DNA from: an uncultured Oscillospiraceae bacterium
Lineage (GTDB): Bacteria > Bacillota > Clostridia > Oscillospirales > Acutalibacteraceae
DNA length: 64,000 nt
Assembly (NCBI GenBank): GCA_949297075.1
Contig: CASFRX010000024.1
Coordinates: 7,651 to 71,650 of the forward strand
Direction of reading: 5' to 3'
Shown: positions 51,374 through 58,101 of the stretch, piece after piece
Layout: every line of letters begins with the position of its first letter
Numbering within the stretch: position 1 is the first letter of the stretch
Notes under the pieces: generated by a model
Seen by the model: the letters and a program-made list of their open reading frames with translations, nothing else
Told to the model about the DNA's origin: nothing
The model's database searches: none
Program-made: the position numbers and the translations under genes

Positions 51374-53008
51374 TCATTGCTCCACCTCCGCTTCCACTTC
51401 GAGCCCACCGATGAAAACCACCTTGATTTTATCCTTGGATTCGACGATCACACATTGCAGGATTTTTCGGATGATTTCATTATCAAAGGTCAGCGGGTGA
51501 TTTTTCATGCCATCAAGGGTGGTAAAAATCTGCTCCAACCGTGACTTAGTGCTTTTGCGATGCTGTTCGGCGGCAATGTATTCTGCCAGCCTGTTTTCAA
51601 GCATTCTCTTTTCGCTCATCAGCGCTTTGATACGGGGATCGGTGAGCAGGCTTTCGGGATTTTCGGCAGTTACGGTGTTTAGGATATCATTGAATTCCTT
51701 ATCGATTTGTGCAATGCGGATTTGAATATCAACGCTTTCGTCCTCACCGGCTTCAGCGCCAAGCCCTATTTGGATATGCATTTTCAATGTTTGCAGAATG
51801 TCGGGATTGCTTTTTGCTGTTTTTAATATGGCATTCATAATCGCTTTTTGCAAGGGGGATTCTTCTATGGTCGGTGAGTGGTGACAGTATTTTTTGCCGT
51901 AGTCAAGGCGGTTGATACAGCGCCATACAATTCTCTTTTGACCACCTGCCGTCCAAGTGCACCGGCGGTATGGCGTTCCGCATTCTCCGCAGACAAGCAG
52001 TTCGGTGAGTGCGTACTTTCCGCAGTATTTGCCTTGCTCGGTTGTCGTGCCGATCTGCTTGACCTTGCGTTTCGAAGCTCGCCTTGCCAGTTCCTCCTGT
52101 ACCTGTGCGAAGGTGTCGGCATCGATGATTGCCGGATGATTGTTCTCTACATAATACTGCGGTCGTTCGCCGCCGTTGATACGCACCTTTTTGCTGATAC
52201 AGTCCTCGACATAGGTTTTGCCCAGCAGAGCGTCACCCTTGTATTTTACATTGGAGAGGATAGATTGTATCACTCCGGGCTGCCATACGGCTTTTCCCAT
52301 CGGCGTGGGAACACTGTCTGCGGTCAGTCCATCGGCAATCTGTTGCAGGCTGCTGCCGGAGAGAAATTCCGTATAGATTCGCCGTACCGTCATCGCCTGT
52401 GCAGGATCAATTTCCGGTTTTCCGTCTGCACCCTGACGGTATCCGAGGAAGGATTTATAAGCGAAGGACACATTGCCTTCCTTTGCGCTTTGCGCCTTGC
52501 CCCATGTCACATTGTGGCTGATGTTTTCGGATTCGCTCTGTGCGATAGAGCCATATATGGAGATATAAAACTCAGAGGCAGGATCGATGCTGTGCAAATT
52601 TTGTTCTTCAAAGTACACATCCACCTTGATTTCACGCAGCATTCGGGTGATCTTGATGCAGTCGAGGGTGTTTCGGGCAAATCGGCTGATGGATTTGACG
52701 ATAATCATATCTACCCGGCCTCGTTTGCATTGGCGTATTAGCTTGTTAAATTCATCGCGCTTTTTCATACTGGTGCCGGTGATACCCTTGTCAGCGTAAA
52801 TGCCTACCAACTTCCAGCCGGGTTCTCTGTGAATCCGTTCTGTGTAGTGGTTCACCTGATTTTCATAACTGTTAAGCTGTTCGTCCTGCTTGGTGGACAC
52901 TCGGCAGTAAGCGGCTACCCGTTTGGTAATGCTTTGTGTGCTGTGCGCATTCACCGGCTGTATAGTCGGAGTGATGGTGTGCACCCGTTTCTGTAATATT
53001 GCTTCCAT
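51374..53008 (-). CDS. large serine recombinase (full length)
   Basis: Catalytic AAYCRVSTKQDEQ motif, resolvase domain, recombinase domain, Cys4 zinc ribbon and coiled coil. Start at MEAILQ, after AGGAGA. Confidence 0.9.
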   Translation of the reverse strand: MEAILQKRVHTITPTIQPVNAHSTQSITKRVAAYCRVSTKQDEQLNSYENQVNHYTERIHREPGWKLVGIYADKGITGTSMKKRDEFNKLIRQCKRGRVDMIIVKSISRFARNTLDCIKITRMLREIKVDVYFEEQNLHSIDPASEFYISIYGSIAQSESENISHNVTWGKAQSAKEGNVSFAYKSFLGYRQGADGKPEIDPAQAMTVRRIYTEFLSGSSLQQIADGLTADSVPTPMGKAVWQPGVIQSILSNVKYKGDALLGKTYVEDCISKKVRINGGERPQYYVENNHPAIIDADTFAQVQEELARRASKRKVKQIGTTTEQGKYCGKYALTELLVCGECGTPYRRCTWTAGGQKRIVWRCINRLDYGKKYCHHSPTIEESPLQKAIMNAILKTAKSNPDILQTLKMHIQIGLGAEAGEDESVDIQIRIAQIDKEFNDILNTVTAENPESLLTDPRIKALMSEKRMLENRLAEYIAAEQHRKSTKSRLEQIFTTLDGMKNHPLTFDNEIIRKILQCVIVESKDKIKVVFIGGLEVEAEVEQ

Positions 53009-53858
53009 CGGTTCTCTCCTTTCTGATCTGCTGACCGTTTTTGAGGGTAAGGCTGACCGTTTTGTCAGCATGGAGTGTAATGACAGCGGCTATTTTCGCT
53101 GTTAGTTCTCCGTTATAGCAAGAGAGCGACCTTGTTCTTTGCAAGGTCGCTCTTATCCTCTCAGTCATATGCCCGACGGCATCAAAGGTTTCATACAGCA
53201 GTGAAGCGTATTCAAATATTCTGTTTTTCAGCGGCTCCTTCTCAATGACAAGGCTGTCAAGCATCTGCCCAATTTCATTCTTTAATCGGATGACCTCCAC
53301 AGGCGGTTCATCCGGTATCGGCTCGCTTTGCAGGATGCTCGGCTTGGCAAGGAGAAAGTTGATGCATTCGGTGATTGCCGAGAGAAAGTCATTATCTGAA
53401 ATCTTGATCACTGCGCCGCAGCCTTTGCATACCCACTTTTCTCCGAAAGTGGTGCGGCCATCATGTTTGCGCTGCATTGGCTCACCGCATTTCTCACAGA
53501 GAACCGGAAGCTGCAGCTTGAAAATATCTGCTGTACGGTCGAGGGATTTCTGTGTGTTTCGGGAGACTCTGACTGCCTGTGCTTTGTCATATATGCTTTG
53601 CTTGATGATAGGCGGATAGCTGTCGCTGCCGATGTAGCGTTTATCCTCAATAATGCGTTTCAGACGAGCTTTGTTCCATCCTGCCACTTCGGGCAGATAT
53701 TCCACTTGTCGTTCATTAAGCCTTTGTGCGATCTTCAATAGGGATTGCCCGTCCAAATAATCGGAAAATATATCTTGAACCGCTTGGCTTTCGGTTGGGT
53801 GAAAGATGATTTTGCCGTTCTCCATTGTATAGCCGAAGGGAATGTTTCGTGTTTTCAT
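52872..53858 (-). CDS. serine-recombinase paralogue lacking the catalytic resolvase domain (recombinase domain, zinc ribbon and coiled coil only)
   Basis: Starts directly at the recombinase-domain motif (IPFGY...). No Y-x-R-V-S-T motif. CEKCG...CKGCG zinc ribbon. Its 3' end overlaps the next recombinase gene out of frame by 137 nt. Confidence 0.75.
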   Translation of the reverse strand: MKTRNIPFGYTMENGKIIFHPTESQAVQDIFSDYLDGQSLLKIAQRLNERQVEYLPEVAGWNKARLKRIIEDKRYIGSDSYPPIIKQSIYDKAQAVRVSRNTQKSLDRTADIFKLQLPVLCEKCGEPMQRKHDGRTTFGEKWVCKGCGAVIKISDNDFLSAITECINFLLAKPSILQSEPIPDEPPVEVIRLKNEIGQMLDSLVIEKEPLKNRIFEYASLLYETFDAVGHMTERIRATLQRTRSLSCYNGELTAKIAAVITLHADKTVSLTLKNGQQIRKERTDGSNITETGAHHHSDYTAGECAQHTKHYQTGSRLLPSVHQAGRTA

Positions 53859-53859
53859 A

Positions 53860-55410
53860 TCATGCGCTCCTTTCCTCGAATTTCTCGGTGAGCGTCAGTC
53901 CACCGGCGAGGCGGAAACGCAGCGTGTTCCTGCCGATTACGGTAATACTCTCCACGATTTGTCCGAACAAGTCCGCATCAAAGCTGTCTGTTGAAACGTA
54001 TTCGGCAATGGTTTCGTTTAATTCTTTCAGAGATTCGATGATTTCGTCATCCTCATCCTCTGTCAAGATGCGGCGGCGCTCTGACCGGAGTTCACTGACC
54101 TTCCGGTCAAGCTCGCCTGATCTGGAGGCATACTCGGCATGATTGAGAATGCCGTTTTTGTAAAGCTGGGCAACCACAAGGCTCTGCGCATTGACATCAG
54201 CGATTTGGCGATTGAGCTGATACACCTGTTCGCCGCTGCCGCTGGTTCGGCTCTGCAGCTTTTCAAGCTGCCTGATTAAATCGCCCAGCAGTTCTTCTCG
54301 GTTTTGCGCGAGCTTATCGCTCATCCGTATGAATGCGGACATCACGGCATCCTCCCGGACTCGGTCACCGGCGCACTCTGTTCTGCCTGCCGCTTTGTAT
54401 GAGCAGAGCCAATATGCTGTTCCGTTCACTACCTGCCTGCGGTAATTGTGACCGCAGACCGGACATTTCAGCATACCGCTGAATGGGTAACGGTTTTTCG
54501 GGACATGATTGCCTTTCGATTTGCTTTTTTGCAGTTCCTGCACTGCTTGGTAGGTTTCTCTGCTGACGATGGCGGGATTGCTGTTTTCCACATAATACTG
54601 TGCCTTTTCGCCTCGGTTTCTCTTTTTGGTAAAGGGCAGGCTTTCGGTGGTGTAACTCTTTTGGAGCAGGCAGTCACCCATATACCTCTCGTTATTGAGA
54701 ATATAGTCAATGGTGAAGAGATGCCATGTTTTCTGACCGTACCGTTTCGGCACTCCGTCCGCATTGAGCTGATTGGCAATGGCTTGCTTGCCGCAGCCCT
54801 GCAGGTAGAGATGAAAAATCCGGCGCACAACCTGCGCCTCCGCTTCATTGATTTGAAGCTCGCCGTCTATGAGGTCGTACCCATAGGCGGCTCGGCAGCA
54901 GTTGAAATCGCCGGATTTCATTCTTTTTTGATAGCTCCACCGCATATTCTCGGATATAGTTTCCGATTCCCGCTGTGCAGCGATGCCGGGGAATGTCATC
55001 ATCAGTTCGAGGTCAACCGTTTCCGTGTCGATGCCTTGCTCTTCAAAATAGATGCTGACGCCCATTTCCTTTAACGCTCTTGTTGCCGCTAAAAATTCGG
55101 CGGTATTTCGGGCGAATCGGGAGACGCTTTTTGTAATAATGCGGTCAATTTTTCCTTTCTTACAGTCCCGAATCAAGCGGTTGAAATCATCCCGCTTGTC
55201 CATGCGTGTGCCGGTGATGCCCTCATCGGCATAAATGTCCACCAGCTCGTATTCAGGATGTTCTGCAACATATTCTGTATAATGCTTGACCTGCGCTGCG
55301 AAAGAGTGAAGCTGATCTTCGGAATTGCTGGATACCCGTGTGTAGGGGGCTAACCGCAGGATTCGCTGTTCCTGTTTTCCGGCTGTCAGCTCGGTAATTG
55401 TTTTTCCCAT
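53860..55410 (-). CDS. large serine recombinase (full length)
   Basis: PYTRVSSNSEDQ catalytic motif, recombinase domain, CPVCG...C zinc ribbon. AAGGAGA RBS. Confidence 0.9.
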   Translation of the reverse strand: MGKTITELTAGKQEQRILRLAPYTRVSSNSEDQLHSFAAQVKHYTEYVAEHPEYELVDIYADEGITGTRMDKRDDFNRLIRDCKKGKIDRIITKSVSRFARNTAEFLAATRALKEMGVSIYFEEQGIDTETVDLELMMTFPGIAAQRESETISENMRWSYQKRMKSGDFNCCRAAYGYDLIDGELQINEAEAQVVRRIFHLYLQGCGKQAIANQLNADGVPKRYGQKTWHLFTIDYILNNERYMGDCLLQKSYTTESLPFTKKRNRGEKAQYYVENSNPAIVSRETYQAVQELQKSKSKGNHVPKNRYPFSGMLKCPVCGHNYRRQVVNGTAYWLCSYKAAGRTECAGDRVREDAVMSAFIRMSDKLAQNREELLGDLIRQLEKLQSRTSGSGEQVYQLNRQIADVNAQSLVVAQLYKNGILNHAEYASRSGELDRKVSELRSERRRILTEDEDDEIIESLKELNETIAEYVSTDSFDADLFGQIVESITVIGRNTLRFRLAGGLTLTEKFEERSA

Positions 55411-55517: not shown

Positions 55518-55673
55518 TTAAAGGAAAAGACATAACTTTTTTTGCGGATCGTAATGTTCCGCCTGCAACTGTAAAATGCTTCTGTATTCTGATTCGCTGA
55601 TCAGCCGCATGGACAGCAGAAGGCGGAGCATATTCACTCCATAGGCAAGGGCGATGCCGTTTTTATCATTCAT
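55518..55673 (-). CDS. 51-aa protein translationally coupled to mazF (MNDKNGIALAYGVNMLRLLLSMRLISESEYRSILQLQAEHYDPQKKLCLFL)
   Basis: Translated by hand. Its ATG lies inside the last codons of mazF (..CAGGAGGCGCGCCATGAATGA), and that GGAGG can serve as its RBS. Not in the ORF track. Confidence 0.5.
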   Translation of the reverse strand: MNDKNGIALAYGVNMLRLLLSMRLISESEYRSILQLQAEHYDPQKKLCLFL

Positions 55674-56028
55674 GGCGCGCCTCCTGTTTCATGCCGAGGC
55701 TGACGCTCATGGCGGATTCTATCCGATGCATATCCTCTGCGGAAATCTGTCCGAGCCGGTCGGACAGACGCTTTTTGTCAATGGTGCGAAGCTGTTCCAG
55801 TAGGACAACCGATTCGCTCTCCAAAAAATCGTAGTCAATAAAGATATGGGTAGGCTGCGATCTTTTCTTCGGCACGGAAGTGATGGGAGCAACAATGGTT
55901 GTAGAACTGAATTTATTGCCGGTGTCGTTTTGAAGAATGAGAACCGGACGGATGCCGCCCTGCTCGCTGCCGACAACGGGGGATAAATCGGCGTAATAAA
56001 TTTCGCCGCGCTTGATTGTATTGGTCAT
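55666..56028 (-). CDS. mazF: MazF/PemK-family endoribonuclease toxin (EndoA-like)
   Basis: KRGEIYYADLSPVVGSEQGGIRPVLILQND...LLEQLRTIDKKRL is near-collinear with B. subtilis EndoA/NdoA. GGAGG sits 8 nt upstream of the ATG. Confidence 0.9.
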   Translation of the reverse strand: MTNTIKRGEIYYADLSPVVGSEQGGIRPVLILQNDTGNKFSSTTIVAPITSVPKKRSQPTHIFIDYDFLESESVVLLEQLRTIDKKRLSDRLGQISAEDMHRIESAMSVSLGMKQEARHE

Positions 56029-56055: not shown

Positions 56056-56110
56056 AAGCCCAAGGGCATGGATAAGCGCAAAAAGGGGGGGATACCTTGC
56101 CCTTGGGCTT
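56056..56110 (-). terminator. terminator-like hairpin 14 nt upstream of the mazF Shine-Dalgarno
   Basis: 13-bp perfect stem AAGCCCAAGGGCA / TGCCCTTGGGCTT (16 bp with one mismatch). On the minus strand only a short U-tract follows (CTTTTAC). Confidence 0.5.
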
Positions 56111-56451
56111 ATTCAATCGTTTTGCGTATTGACCATATTTGTCCTCGCACCCGTGGTCAGACGGCAGACTTGCAAACAATCGACAGCGAATCGATTCCCC
56201 AGGAATTTCACCTCCGCGTGGTTCTCACCCGGCCGCCCTCTTTGGTTGCGACGGCTCACGACACATACTGTGCCGCTTCAACGCTCGACTTTTGACTGGA
56301 CGGGGTGTTGTCTTTCCGCAGCCTGTCATGGCGTAATTCATGCGGTGCTGCCGCACTATCTGTTCCAAAAGGAACAGGCCGCTTGCCCCTTTCGAGGACA
56401 GCAGGCGGAAAGTATTTGCAGTTGGATTATGAAGTTTTCAAGGAACGCGGA
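56111..56451 (-). ncRNA. candidate structured non-coding RNA or long regulatory leader (class unknown)
   Basis: No minus-strand ORF of 60 or more codons. Bracketed by two hairpin terminators. GC-rich, with multiple local hairpins and an 8-nt long-range complement (56140-56147 with 56393-56400). Confidence 0.35.
56113..56126 (-). repeat. 14-nt copy (minus-strand RNA: CGCAAAACGAUUGA) complementary to the anti-SD arm of the sigma-gene leader hairpin
   Basis: Plus-strand TCAATCGTTTTGCG at 56113-56126. Its reverse complement CGCAAAACGATTGA occurs on the plus strand at 57066-57079. Confidence 0.6.
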
Positions 56452-56497
56452 GGCAAACAAAAATGCCCCTCACTTTCCATGGCGAAAAGCGAGGGGT
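56452..56497 (-). terminator. rho-independent terminator of the sigma-like gene
   Basis: On the minus strand, CCCCTCGCTTTTC pairs with GGAAAGTGAGGGG and is followed by CATTTTTGTTTG. Confidence 0.7.
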
Positions 56498-56514
56498 TTG
56501 CACACCTTGAATTT

Positions 56515-57033
56515 TTAACTCTCTAAAAGTTTTTTGAGCTTTTCAAGAATGCGCATTTTCTTTTTGTGCACTGCATTATGGTAAATCCCTTTTTTTGCAG
56601 CATATTCCCGTTCGGTCAATCCTTCATAAAACAGCTTGCGGATCAGCTCCTGCTCATCCTCCGACAGCAGAGAAAGCATGGCAACGAGCTTGTCCGTCAT
56701 TATCTTGCGGATGACCTGCTCATCCACAGGCTCGGCGGTGTCGATCAGAATGTCCGCACCATTAAAATCATCTGTGGTCAGCATATCGATGGAGATATCT
56801 CCGTTTTCTGCCGACCGTCTGTCCAGATACCGTTGTCTGTTCTTAGTGCGGTAAAAATCGGCATATTGCTCCGGCGTCACCTCCATCAGCATTCCATGTA
56901 GCGGAACAAATTTTTTCTTCTGATAACGGATGTCTGTGCCTTTTCTATAGCATAGTTCCGAATAAGTGATTTCCTCATAGCCATCCTTTGAAAATACAAA
57001 GCATTTGGATTTGGCATATTTATCGTCTGCCAT
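56515..57033 (-). CDS. sigma-70 region-4-type protein (MGE-associated sigma factor-like regulator, Tn916 Orf7-like class)
   Basis: C-terminal region-4 HTH (LSEDEQELIRKLFYEGLTEREYAAKKGIYHNAVHKKKMRILEKLKK). Start at MADDKY, after GGAGG. Confidence 0.75.
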   Translation of the reverse strand: MADDKYAKSKCFVFSKDGYEEITYSELCYRKGTDIRYQKKKFVPLHGMLMEVTPEQYADFYRTKNRQRYLDRRSAENGDISIDMLTTDDFNGADILIDTAEPVDEQVIRKIMTDKLVAMLSLLSEDEQELIRKLFYEGLTEREYAAKKGIYHNAVHKKKMRILEKLKKLLES

Positions 57034-57048
57034 TTGGTTTTCCTCCAA

Positions 57049-57079
57049 TCAATCGTTTTGAAATTCGCAAAACGATTGA
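57049..57079 (-). promoter_or_regulatory. 12-bp perfect inverted repeat forming, with its flanks, a roughly 19-bp hairpin that buries the sigma-gene Shine-Dalgarno
   Basis: TCAATCGTTTTG (57049-57060), a 7-nt spacer, then CAAAACGATTGA (57068-57079). On the mRNA the 5' flank CCTCCCAG pairs with the 3' flank TTGGAGG, which is the SD. Confidence 0.6.
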
Positions 57080-57126
57080 CTGGGAGGACTGCGGCATCCC
57101 ACGAAAAAAATCTGCGTTATATGCAA

Positions 57127-57190
57127 AACGGCACACCGGCAGGAATAAAAACCTGCGGATGTGCCGTTGTTCTGATTTTTATTTGTTTTA
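57127..57190. terminator. strong hairpin, terminator-like on both strands, in the sigma/XRE divergent intergenic region
   Basis: AACGGCACACCGGCAGG (57127-57143) pairs with CCTGCGGATGTGCCGTT (57152-57168) with 2 mismatches. T-rich run on plus and TTTTGCAT on minus. Confidence 0.55.
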
Positions 57191-57442: not shown

Positions 57443-57500
57443 CCAATGGTTATTTATATGAGTAATAGCACACATTATAATATGTATGAGGTGAGGTGCC

Positions 57501-57824
57501 ATGAAGAATCCGCTGGATTTATTTGCTGCCGATCTCCGTGCCGCAAGAATCAGGCGGAATCTGACACAGAGGCAGTTGGCAGAAATGCTGCACATGAGTG
57601 TGCGAACAATTATTGAACTGGAACGGTGCAAAAGCAGCCCGCGCTTTGAAACGGTGGCAACGCTTGCAAAAGAGCTGGACATCAGTTTGGATGCTGTTGT
57701 ATTCCAAGACAGCAAAACTGACAGAGTTTCAAAGAGCATAGTCGATTTCTTTTCTGACAAAAGCGAGGAAGAAATTCAAAAATACATCGCGCTTTGTGAG
57801 CAAGCGGATACACTGAAAGGTTAA
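57501..57824 (+). CDS. XRE-family helix-turn-helix transcriptional regulator
   Basis: HTH_3 motif (LRAARIRRNLTQRQLAEMLHMSVRTIIELERCKSSP). GAGGTGAGGTG RBS. Confidence 0.85.
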   Translation: MKNPLDLFAADLRAARIRRNLTQRQLAEMLHMSVRTIIELERCKSSPRFETVATLAKELDISLDAVVFQDSKTDRVSKSIVDFFSDKSEEEIQKYIALCEQADTLKG

Positions 57825-58101
57825 GACAGATCGAAAAGCAGCCATAAGGTTGCTTTTTTCTTTTATAAAGAACAAGAGCCGATGTACCGCATTTTATATT
57901 AGCGGTACATCGGCTCTGCGCTTTTGCTTCCGGCTCTTTGATGACTGTTGTATTCAGTTCTATCATATTGATTAACGTTTCTTTCTTGCATTTCGGGCAA
58001 TATAGAGGAAAGTTTTTTAATTCTGTATCGTCTCTGACTTTCACTCGAGTTTTTTGCTTGCAAATGGGACATCGAATCCATATAAGCTCTTTTTCATGCA
58101 T
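57682..58101 (-). CDS. cysteine-rich KTR domain protein; only the first ~64 codons (58101-57910) look like the family, and the remaining 75 codons read through the hairpin and antisense to the XRE gene
   Basis: The product IWIRCPICKQKTRVKVRDDTELKNFPLYCPKCKKETLINM...KEPEAKAQSR matches the Cys_rich_KTR pattern. No stop codon until 57682. Confidence 0.6.
   Translation of the reverse strand: MHEKELIWIRCPICKQKTRVKVRDDTELKNFPLYCPKCKKETLINMIELNTTVIKEPEAKAQSRCTANIKCGTSALVLYKRKKQPYGCFSICLNLSVYPLAHKARCIFEFLPRFCQKRNRLCSLKLCQFCCLGIQQHPN
57875..57917. terminator. 16-bp perfect hairpin between the convergent XRE and KTR genes
   Basis: AGAGCCGATGTACCGC (57875-57890) pairs with GCGGTACATCGGCTCT (57902-57917). 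Confidence 0.7.

Follow-up and report, generated by a model that had tools for sequence, protein, structure and literature searches.

Tn916-like elements are carriers by which antibiotic resistance passes between Gram-positive bacteria, among them the gut Clostridia, in which the family is common. The pemK RNA motif was reportedly described by Weinberg et al. in 2017. In Tn916 itself, a cis-acting processive antiterminator RNA associated with conjugation, canT, was first described only in 2024 (Wirachman and Grossman 2024, PMC11658703). Another Gram-positive element, pLS20, relies on conAn bipartite antitermination and a zipper-type attenuator (PMC8191782, PMC13401043). In the literature, as far as it was searched, no paper was found that links the pemK motif with an experimentally shown antiterminator.

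The DNA analysed here is a stretch of 64 kb, referred to as the window. Judged by its gene order, it carries a Tn916-like mobile element of the Tn916-superfamily integrative type, in a host that is evidently a gut Clostridia-type bacterium. The Shine-Dalgarno (SD) sequence of a sigma-like regulator gene in this element is buried in a hairpin, and a complement of one strand of the hairpin is found in a non-coding RNA downstream of the gene. This match suggests, without proving, an RNA switch that would tie translation of the regulator to antitermination. The comparison was extended to 160 relatives from genome and metagenome loci, which were picked by protein similarity.

Gene order and the hairpin at the regulator gene

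The order of the Tn916 regulatory module (KTR, XRE, sigma-like gene, canT, recombinases) is matched in the window, as shown by synteny with Tn916/Tn925 in pCF10. The genes and signals around the locus are as follows.

57682 to 58101, minus strand: ORF with a cysteine-rich KTR domain (Pfam Cys_rich_KTR, E = 2e-26, residues 8-59; Tn916 annotation)
57501 to 57824, plus strand: XRE-type HTH regulator gene (Pfam HTH_3, E = 3e-13; synteny with Tn916/Tn925 in pCF10)
57474 to 57502, minus strand: candidate sigma-70-type promoter-like site (ATGGCA, 17 nt, TATAAT; 10/12 matches in a consensus scan)
57129 to 57166, minus strand: terminator-like hairpin in the leader (CGGCACAUCCGCAGG, loop, CCUGCCGGUGUGCCG, then UUUUG; read from the sequence)
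56515 to 57033, minus strand: sigma-like regulator gene, 172 aa (ATG at 57033-57031), positional counterpart of Tn916 orf7
56466 to 56496, minus strand: intrinsic terminator-like hairpin directly 3' of the sigma-like gene (14 pairs and a U tract, then CAUUUUUGUU)
55666 to 56028, minus strand: mazF/pemK-type endoribonuclease toxin gene (ATG at 56028; SD GGAGG at 56042-56038; Pfam PemK_toxin, E = 7e-34)
51374 to 55410, minus strand: three tandem large serine recombinase-type ORFs (Pfam Resolvase, Recombinase and Zn_ribbon_recom for 53860-55410)

The KTR ORF and the XRE gene are the positional counterparts of Tn916 orf6 and orf9, respectively. The XRE gene diverges from the sigma-like gene and is overlapped, on the opposite strand, by the 3' part of the KTR ORF. 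The three recombinase ORFs occupy the position of the recombination module, which is xis-int in Tn916. When the 1-kb region was compared with plasmids by BLAST, a single weak match was returned.

The first-pass annotation of this DNA, made from the letters alone, spoke of a sigma gene. The likeness to sigma factors was retained, but the TIGR02937 score of the protein is 40.9 bits against a cut-off of 42.9, and its Pfam region-4 matches are below threshold. The product is probably a divergent ECF-like sigma factor or a region-4 HTH protein, and it is called only sigma-like here. Similarity to Tn916 Orf7 was not found by BLASTP. If the candidate promoter at 57502-57474 is used, the leader of the gene would be about 430 nt long. 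A second, weaker terminator-like hairpin is present in this leader at 57271-57258, and equivalent terminator-like hairpins lie 5' of the SD hairpin in loci L001-L009. At the other end of the gene, the loop sequence of the terminator-like hairpin 56496-56466 is kept across the aligned relatives.

The hairpin at the start of the gene is the following.

57042 to 57087, minus strand: SD-sequestering hairpin of about 20 bp (anti-SD strand 57087-57068, loop 57067-57061, SD strand 57060-57042, with GGAGG at 57046-57042)

Its 12-nt arms, UCAAUCGUUUUG on the 5' side (57079-57068) and CAAAACGAUUGA on the 3' side (57060-57049), are perfectly complementary and enclose the loop CGAAUUU (57067-57061). All coordinates that the first-pass annotation had given for these arms, on the minus strand, were found to be correct. 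Beyond the arms, the helix continues through a G.U, an A-U and two C-G pairs, a bulged C (C57082), a U-A and two more C-G pairs. CCUCC (57087-57083) is paired with GGAGG (57046-57042), so that the whole GGAGG is buried. RNAfold of 57100-57025 gave -31.7 kcal/mol (z = -5.4), a stability that 0 of 200 shuffled sequences reached, in agreement with the earlier description of flanks with a single bulged C and a fully paired GGAGG.

An SD-sequestering hairpin is present in about 75 of the 80 genome loci, which were picked by protein similarity alone, with many unrelated stem sequences; SD-locking hairpins are likewise present in the metagenome loci. The structure is retained in homologues while the sequence of the stem changes completely. 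MAFFT followed by RNAalifold yielded zero consensus pairs on these SD hairpins, the stems of which vary in length and register, and an end-anchored, column-wise covariation count was blurred by bulges that shift the register. No G.U strand bias was seen between the sense and antisense folds of 57 hairpins (52 versus 53), an uninformative result. Rfam, searched with the hairpin region at permissive thresholds, returned only chance matches to miRNAs and snoRNAs. A uORF ending at the TGA inside GAUUGA, an idea obtained by eye, was rejected as the hairpin lengths vary out of frame. The hairpin is proposed to be a translational lock on the sigma-like regulator that would keep 30S subunits off the message.

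The canT-type RNA and its exposed 3' box

Four features were mapped between the sigma-like gene and mazF.

56113 to 56460, minus strand: canT-type non-coding RNA element, including the Rfam pemK motif at 56254-56201 (Rfam, nhmmer, family HMM)
56131 to 56158, minus strand: covarying helix, GACCA (56158-56154) with UGGUC (56135-56131), in a manual structure counted on alignment A4
56113 to 56126, minus strand: 3' box, CGCAAAACGAUUGA, third copy, a perfect 14-nt complement of 57079-57066; the family consensus is AAAACGAUUGAUAC
56056 to 56110, minus strand: terminator-like hairpin between the box and the mazF SD (AAGCCCAAGGGCA ... UGCCCUUGGGCUU, then UUUACUU), the stem of which covaries across loci

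The first-pass annotation had treated this part of the locus as an ORF-free segment and had missed that it is not anonymous. By homology, it is the counterpart of Tn916 canT within a Tn916-like module, with the pemK motif as its core; antitermination in the present element is assigned by homology only. The motif at 56254-56201 scores 40 bits against a gathering score of 34.8, Tn916 canT contains the same motif with 55 bits, and the family HMM matches the core of Tn916 canT with E = 4e-12. In most of the loci, nhmmer located the canT-type element 3' of the sigma-like gene; in the window it follows the orf7-like regulator gene and precedes the recombination genes, as expected in a Tn916-like regulatory module. 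On these matches, the comparative work ties the orphan Rfam pemK motif to an experimentally shown antiterminator, canT. Neither a consensus scan nor a by-eye reading of the alignment gave a promoter-like site in the interval from the terminator that follows the sigma-like gene to the box, and no promoter for canT or for a separate trans-acting sRNA was recognised.

The last structured canT element 5' of the box is the helix 56158-56131, which closes a conserved GGG..CGAGGACAAAUA loop. Directly 3' of the box follows the terminator-like hairpin that precedes mazF, mapped at 56110-56056, as the first-pass annotation had placed it. The two helices flanking the box are 89.6% paired in alignment A4, a value that 0 of 500 shuffles reached; slid controls gave 19-52%. 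Located at the 3' end of canT, in the single-stranded linker between these two covarying helices, the box is a conservation island amid diverged flanks. It is unpaired in the consensus fold, and in the window its bases have, on average, a probability of 0.68 of being unpaired. Where canT has the other type of 3' end, the box is missing.

It had been claimed that a 14-mer recurring by chance within 1 kb is very unlikely, and our own arithmetic bears this out: about 1e-5 to 1e-3 exact recurrences are expected, depending on how trials are counted. The 12-mer CAAAACGATTGA occurs at only three places in the 64-kb window, two on the minus strand and one on the plus strand, the last being the 5' arm. 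With one mismatch allowed, 4 matches were obtained in the window versus 0.72 expected. The window holds no further copies of the box, and a genome scan with the pattern AAATA N{6,22} AAACGATTGAT produced chance matches only.

Complementarity between the box and the anti-SD strand

The perfect 14-nt complementarity of 56126-56113 to the anti-SD arm plus two loop bases (57079-57066), noticed in the first-pass annotation, was reproduced. Across the relatives, the anti-SD strand is complementary over 12-21 nt to the box of its own locus in about two thirds of the box-carrying genome loci; counted over genome and metagenome loci, about 30 sequence variants have such a match. In several lineages, the two sites have changed together. 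L262/L343 have the box GAUCAAACCGG and the 5' strand CCGGUUGAUC, with which the local SD strand pairs via three G.U. The match in L364 places GUCAAUC opposite GAUUGAC, that in L408 comprises 21 pairs and runs into the anti-SD, and that in L380 sets a run of seven A opposite a run of seven U. In L313, L324 and L389 the match stretches to ..GAUAC(G). In L276/L413, 15/17 nt are complementary, 6 of which lie in the internal loop of the local hairpin, and concerted changes of box and 5' strand are also seen in L403. Complementary pairs are also carried by cultured strains, among them Acutalibacter caecimuris M00118 and Neglectibacter sp. X58 (L296, L300, L323). In several lineages the local SD strand is bulged, mismatched or wobbled where the box pairs perfectly. 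Pairing with the own box averaged -22.6 kcal/mol versus -19.4 kcal/mol with boxes from other loci, which 0 of 10,000 permutations reached; this test ignores the relatedness of the loci and, since they are related by descent, overstates their independence. Scans by RNAduplex in which the 5' strand kept its CCUCC were dropped, because the many GGAGG sites made the background too high.

The predicted energies of the two states are close to each other. For the hairpin in the window, +19.6 kcal/mol is needed to open the 5' arm, against a gain of -21.4 kcal/mol from the duplex with the box. Averaged over 35 variants for which at least 11 pairs are predicted, the opening cost is 18.9 kcal/mol and the gain 19.6 kcal/mol. 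The net energy lies between about -10 and +7 kcal/mol for clearly complementary variants and between +5 and +14 kcal/mol for box-carrying loci with unmatched hairpins. Counter to the pairing, the MFE fold of the full 1051-nt transcript retains the local hairpin.

A switch that would fit these observations may work as follows. The anti-SD strand (the anti-SD together with UCAAUCGUUUUG) would pair with the SD strand and block 30S binding. When transcription runs past the sigma-like gene and on through canT, the box may invade the hairpin, perhaps starting at the loop nucleotides that are also complementary to it. It would then displace the SD strand as the partner of the anti-SD, by which the SD would be freed. 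This anti-antisense switch would most probably act in cis, within a single transcript and over a span of about 950 nt, and would couple translation of the regulator to synthesis of the antiterminator. The pairing presumably takes place in cells, and its effect would be to activate translation. Release of the SD of the sigma-like gene by a long-range RNA pairing, which probably joins two sites of a single transcript, is the explanation given most weight here, with a confidence that falls just short of even. Still somewhat more tentative is its wider form, in which the canT/pemK-motif tail would have a second job across a large set of gut Clostridia elements that belong to the Tn916 superfamily. 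By pairing in cis over about 950 nt it would unlock translation of the regulator, which would then be made only from antiterminator-bearing transcripts, as a feed-forward check before excision and transfer. A strong terminator-like hairpin separates the sigma-like gene from canT, which is counter to pairing within the same transcript.

The first-pass annotation had considered that the downstream RNA frees the ribosome-binding site, and had made this idea depend on conservation and co-variation of both sites. This is borne out in part: both sites are conserved in many elements, joint changes are seen in several lineages (L262/L343, L364, L408, L380, L313, L276, L403), and the energies are balanced. 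However, about a third of the loci are without complementarity: about 17 of about 47 box-carrying genome loci have hairpins with no more than about 7 bases complementary to the box. The box is kept beside a non-matching hairpin in, for example, L264, L271, L280, L291, L301 and L330, and also in L126 and L033, which together with the CUAAAC class break the rule of box/anti-SD co-variation. Conversely, CGUUUUG-type hairpins are present without a box in L259, L261, L281, L282, L037 and L074. Since the box is kept in about 17 loci without a matching hairpin, it must have a function of its own, and the unmatched hairpins must open in some other way. No alternative downstream partner of these unmatched hairpins rose above shuffled controls, and the search for another sense-strand complement of the box in hairpin-unmatched loci gave only scattered 8-9-mers.

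These loci lend weight to a reading without any functional link, which is considered rather unlikely. The box would then serve the canT RNA or the adjacent terminator, for example as a contact for RNA polymerase or a protein or as a processing site. The arms of one element class would share their origin with it, for instance through an old duplication of the stretch 5' of a ribosome-binding site, and the SD hairpin would be opened in another way, such as by RNase III, a helicase, a protein or a further element-encoded RNA. In canT elements with the other 3' end, the SD strand of the sigma-like gene has a look-alike in the ribosome-binding region of mazF, which hints at a common ancestry of these regions, and the common core AAAACGAUUGAU could be merely ancestral. 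However, drift from a common origin fails to explain why several bases of the box and of the 5' strand changed in concert in L262/L343. Nor does such an origin account for the lineage-specific extension of the match into otherwise unconserved flanks in L408, L380, L313, L364 and L403, for the box complement that L276 keeps and its local hairpin leaves unpaired, or for an opening cost that approximately equals the duplex gain.

The same complementarity data would also fit a real pairing with its main effect on the canT side, which is considered improbable. Here the anti-SD strand would capture the box and thereby alter the antiterminator function or termination at 56110-56056, or create an RNase III site. 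Duplexes of 14-21 bp are within the size range of RNase III substrates, and a cut could separate canT from the mazF-recombinase message and the anti-SD strand from the regulator message. The box does lie directly 5' of the terminator-like hairpin, but the terminator stems vary between loci while the box is constant, and therefore the box cannot be a conventional anti-terminator strand. Furthermore, Tn916 canT functions without such a box (PMC11658703).

The match was also weighed as a feature of the DNA. The first-pass annotation had offered, as its second reading, that both sites are operators of one element-encoded protein. As formulated here, the XRE repressor or the sigma-like protein would bind two inverted sites about 950 bp apart; this found no positive support and is put at the same low level of likelihood as an effect on the canT side. 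In most lineages the box is the reverse complement of the 5' arm over 12-16 bp with almost no wobble-type differences, the hairpin lacks a G.U strand bias, and two HTH proteins are encoded beside the sites. The reverse-complemented 5' strand and the box agree mostly perfectly, with too few substitutions to tell RNA wobble from DNA identity; typing the substitutions as wobble-compatible or incompatible likewise met too few independent events. However, the box is not a palindrome and has no partner half-site at a fixed spacing. It is placed in a transcribed linker between covarying RNA helices, with no obvious promoter beside it and no further copies in the window, and the hairpin sequences are wholly different among elements with similar sigma-like proteins. 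The limits of the identity shift by lineage (to the left, to the right, into the loop or into the anti-SD), a pattern more in keeping with nucleic-acid pairing than with a fixed-length protein site.

A DNA-level alternative of a different kind takes the 5' arm and the box as the inverted repeats of an invertible segment (57066 to 56126), in which a recombinase would flip the sigma-like gene and canT as an on/off switch. The repeats are perfect over 14 bp (57079-57066 and 56126-56113) around a 940-bp segment, recombinase genes are directly downstream, and recombination between the repeats would keep them identical and so explain the concerted changes. Nevertheless, inversion is very improbable as the main explanation, because 0 of about 130 informative assembled loci, picked by protein similarity, are inverted relative to the flanking KTR/XRE or mazF/recombinase genes. 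In addition, the SD hairpin is kept in many elements without a repeat partner, about a third of the loci keep the box with no partner for it, and the recombinases are of the large serine type, the kind that integrates and excises elements.

If the pairing that frees the SD is true, one RNA would join two layers of control, namely translation of the regulator and antitermination of a long transfer operon. Regardless of the pairing, the comparison offers a family-wide SD-locking hairpin for orf7-like regulators, a comparative alignment of canT-type RNAs that shows covarying helices and an exposed, conserved box, and a tie of the pemK motif to an antiterminator known from experiment.

Likeness to known systems

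The proposed freeing of the SD can be compared with the control of rpoS by DsrA, RprA and ArcZ in E. coli. In both cases the ribosome-binding site is caught in an inhibitory hairpin of the leader by a strand 5' of it, this strand has a complement elsewhere in RNA that could release the site, and the target is of the sigma type. Unlike in the rpoS system, the candidate activator is the 3' tail of an antiterminator RNA of about 400 nt, located about 950 nt downstream and probably in the same transcript, and about a third of the relatives are without complementarity. Since the host is a Gram-positive bacterium of the Clostridia type, no need for Hfq is expected. The analogy to DsrA/RprA drawn in the first-pass annotation does not extend to a strict sRNA of that kind, because the sequence forms the tail of a canT-type antiterminator, for which no promoter of its own was recognised, and most likely belongs to the same transcript.

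Fold-back inhibition of the IS10/Tn10 transposase is similar in that, in a mobile element, the ribosome-binding site of an important gene is concealed in a hairpin with a complementary strand 5' of it. In IS10, this upstream strand is only found in read-through transcripts that come from outside, whereas here the anti-SD strand adjoins the SD. By eye, the anti-SD strand would lie 3' of any plausible promoter, the one considered being a TATAAC at 57121-57116, which is a weak inference. All transcripts should therefore carry it; the by-eye idea of an IS10-like mechanism was rejected on this ground.

With conAn and the zipper of pLS20, the locus shares a general design, in which the long operons of Gram-positive conjugative elements have a leader that combines terminators, a large antiterminator RNA and RNA pairing over long distances. 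However, no sequence relationship was detected, ConAn1 is a pXO2-34-type protein and not sigma-like, and what the zipper controls is termination of transcription and not a ribosome-binding site.

The pemK RNA motif (Rfam RF02913) is matched in the window above the gathering score and 5' of a pemK/mazF gene. Rfam lists it as a candidate cis-regulator of unknown mechanism. Its model covers 61 positions only, within a conserved element that is much larger and is also found 5' of genes that are not mazF; in Tn916, this larger element coincides with canT. A described relative is Tn916 canT (PMC11658703), which is also found 3' of one or more sigma-like regulator genes and 5' of recombination genes in a KTR-XRE-sigma module, with a pemK-motif core and a similar size of about 350-450 nt. 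Tn916 canT differs in that it has no AAAACGAUUGAUAC box and precedes xis-int, whereas mazF and serine recombinases follow here, and the detectable homology between the two RNAs is confined to the core of about 100 nt.

The regulatory module and its Shine-Dalgarno hairpin

The gene order was derived on the minus strand from ORFs and Pfam matches, and the hairpin strands and the 14-mer were read directly from the sequence.

Features of the module in minus-strand order (minus strand unless stated)
Cysteine-rich KTR ORF, 139 aa, first in the order
XRE-type HTH gene, after the KTR ORF, opposite strand
57500-57100: long leader with two terminator-like hairpins, followed by the Shine-Dalgarno (SD) hairpin
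57087-57068: anti-SD strand, namely CCUCC (57087-57083), a bulged C, AG, and UCAAUCGUUUUG (57079-57068)
57060-57042: SD strand, namely CAAAACGAUUGA (57060-57049), UU, and GGAGG (57046-57042)
57033: ATG of the sigma-like gene (172 aa)
56466-56496: strong terminator-like hairpin, directly after the sigma-like gene
ORF-free stretch of about 400 nt, upstream of mazF
56126-56113: 14-mer CGCAAAACGAUUGA
56110-56056: second terminator-like hairpin, immediately 3' of the 14-mer and upstream of mazF
55666-56028: mazF/pemK toxin gene
55673-55518: SHOCT_2-domain ORF, 51 aa, overlapping the 3' end of mazF
51374-55410: three large serine recombinase-type ORFs in tandem

The two strands base-pair around a loop of 7 nt, giving a hairpin of -31.7 kcal/mol (RNAfold, z = -5.4), and none of 200 shuffled sequences was as stable. 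The first-pass annotation had described this hairpin together with a downstream complement of its anti-SD strand; when the minus strand was read from 57800 to 55500, its coordinates were all found to be correct. The 12-mer has no further occurrence in the 64-kb window. It follows that the observation is real and did not arise by chance. The sigma-like protein scored 40.9 bits on TIGR02937 (cut-off 42.9) and is, as judged by this profile, a near-threshold ECF-type sigma factor.

The motif (U)AGGYUGCCGCAG (57090-57103, minus strand) abuts the anti-SD strand on the upstream side. It was found in the same place in the relatives' loci L020, L025, L079, L112, L126 and L264, kept despite differing hairpin stems, and could mark an mRNA 5' end, part of a promoter or a site of protein binding. 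The KTR ORF is far longer than its 54-residue domain, whereas the KTR gene of Tn916 has only about 55 codons. The window's KTR ORF and the XRE gene converge, and the former runs antisense to the latter's 3' part for about 140 nt (57682-57824). The middle recombinase ORF (52872-53858, 328 aa) apparently lacks the N-terminal resolvase domain, judging its translation by eye, and its overlap with the third (51374-53071) is about 200 nt; possible causes are a frameshift, a pseudogene or an unusual layout.

The ORF-free segment as a canT-type RNA

The ORF-free stretch contains the Rfam pemK motif (56254-56201, minus strand; 40 bits, gathering score 34.8). Tn916 was retrieved as Tn925 on pCF10 (L139) via its Xis protein, and its annotated order is tet(M), KTR protein, opposite-strand HTH regulator, sigma-70-family orf7, HTH orf8, a gap, xis and int, so that the regulatory module has the same order as that of the window. 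The orf8-xis gap encodes canT, an orientation-specific, cis-acting, processive antiterminator RNA of 452 nt (minimally 341 nt), which the conjugation genes need for their transcription once the element has excised (Wirachman and Grossman, PMC11658703). The full pemK motif lies within this gap (L139 2823-2923, 55 bits), and a profile from the window's relatives matches the same site with E = 4e-12. Given the shared module, the motif and the profile match, the window's segment is, by homology, a canT-type RNA. The canT paper mentions neither Rfam nor pemK (PMC11658703), and no publication linking the motif to canT was found in the literature searched. In the Rfam listing, the motif (RF02913) is a candidate cis-regulator. 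Since it lies inside the experimentally defined canT and in the window's homologue, this orphan motif may be the core of a processive antiterminator.

The mazF gene has no upstream antitoxin ORF, and the canT-type RNA occupies that place. In the hairpin at 56466-56496, loop and upper stem (UUUUCGSCAUGGAAAG) are conserved and the lower stem covaries; its role may go beyond termination, for instance as the initial hairpin of the canT-type RNA.

In most loci, a non-coding element follows the sigma-like gene, and its alignment shows conserved blocks with hairpins of varying length between them. One large group of elements ends 3' in AAAACGAUUGAUAC, hereafter the box, which is the window's 14-mer; a second group has a different 3' end without it. 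The box is conserved as an island amid diverged flanks and is located in the linker between two covarying helices (89.6% of cells paired; 0 of 500 shuffles equal; slid controls 19-52%), where the consensus fold leaves it unpaired. The best current reading of the downstream site is thus an exposed 3' box of a putative canT-type antiterminator RNA. In loci with the other canT 3'-end type (L093, L053, L137, L044), the sequence immediately 5' of the mazF SD, AAAUCCAGAUAGGAGG, is similar to the sigma-like gene's SD strand. The L093 copy lies about +1080 from the hairpin of that locus and complements the anti-SD arm perfectly over 10 nt, at a place where the local arm forms a G.U pair.

SD sequestration among relatives

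Relatives were gathered by a first protein-based scan, a pattern scan and a protein alignment. All nine informative loci of the first scan carry the SD hairpin, with an identical outer sequence and varying inner stems (CGUUUUG/CAAAACG or CUGAAU/AUUCAG). The pattern scan placed it upstream of several small sigma-like protein families in Lachnospiraceae, Oscillospiraceae and Ruminococcaceae, with single cases in a Streptococcus and in a MAG labelled Prevotella. To avoid pattern bias, 80 genome and 80 metagenome loci were fetched with the protein alignment. In about 75 of the 80 genome loci, CCUCC-like bases pair with GGAGG and 10-15 further pairs follow, and the stems among these protein-selected loci are wholly unlike in sequence. 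A structure hiding the SD therefore has strong comparative support. A column-wise covariation count yielded no usable signal because bulges shift the register, and the G.U pairs showed no strand bias, so that this test gave nothing usable. The best current reading is that the hairpin acts as a family-wide translational lock on an orf7-like regulator.

By eye, the SD region of Tn916 orf7, GAAAGGGGG, is apparently pairable with upstream CUUCCUUUC (L139 1840-1893), and SD sequestration may therefore reach Tn916 itself. The orf9-orf7 leader of Tn916 (L139 1374-1603) matches Rfam SQ2397, 'Cis-regulator of HTH transcription factor', with 230 bits; this match is absent from the window's equivalent leader (57500-57100).

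Proposed pairing between hairpin and box

Across about 30 sequence variants, 12-21 nt of the anti-SD strand match the locus's own box, and this pairing is stronger than that with boxes of other loci. The limits of the match shift between lineages: it extends into the loop in the window and L403, out to GAUAC(G) in L313, L324 and L389, and as far as the anti-SD in L408 (21 pairs), and it includes seven A:U pairs in L380. L262/L343 have four differing positions in the box (GAUCAAACC) with corresponding differences in the 5' strand (GGUUGAUC), and the local SD strand, constrained by UUGGAGG, pairs via three G.U pairs. L364 has a U-to-C change in the box and a matching A-to-G in the 5' strand. The 5' strand of L276/L413 complements the box at 15 of 17 nt, and six of these have no partner within the local hairpin. 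A bulge or mismatch interrupts several local SD strands at points of perfect box pairing. Opening the window's hairpin would cost +19.6 kcal/mol and the duplex would gain -21.4, nearly in balance (means of 18.9 and 19.6 over the 35 variants predicted to form at least 11 pairs).

Other evidence counts against a link. The box occurs with an unrelated hairpin in about 17 genome loci, where no other partner was detectable, and likewise in L126 and L033; some hairpins of the matching type lack a box. MFE folding retains the local hairpin, and the amount of joint transcript is uncertain because a strong terminator-like hairpin separates the gene from canT.

A further point against is that the two sites are almost always perfect inverted repeats in the DNA, so RNA wobble cannot separate the RNA from the DNA level. 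Such repeats might bound an invertible segment, which would account for their identity and concerted change; this is unlikely, as about 130 informative loci yielded no inversion relative to the flanks, and hairpin and box are each conserved alone in many elements. The earlier proposal of paired DNA operators is not favoured either: the box is not palindromic, its match limits vary, it lies inside a structured, transcribed RNA and it has no further copies in the window.

For the window's class of elements, the best current reading is that hairpin and box have been kept complementary, and selection on some RNA-level pairing seems more likely than not. The box would displace the SD strand from the anti-SD strand and thereby permit translation of the regulator. 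Such displacement, probably in cis, would most simply explain the kept complementarity; as a mechanism it is put forward tentatively, at a little below an even chance. The first-pass idea of a downstream RNA freeing the SD is thus retained in part, on the strength of the complementarity and the matching changes in several lineages, with the box loci that have unrelated hairpins against it. Its analogy holds for the proposed mode of action, which would be similar to that of DsrA and RprA on rpoS. However, these act as separate sRNAs, and since none is involved in the window's element, it stands outside the DsrA/RprA family.
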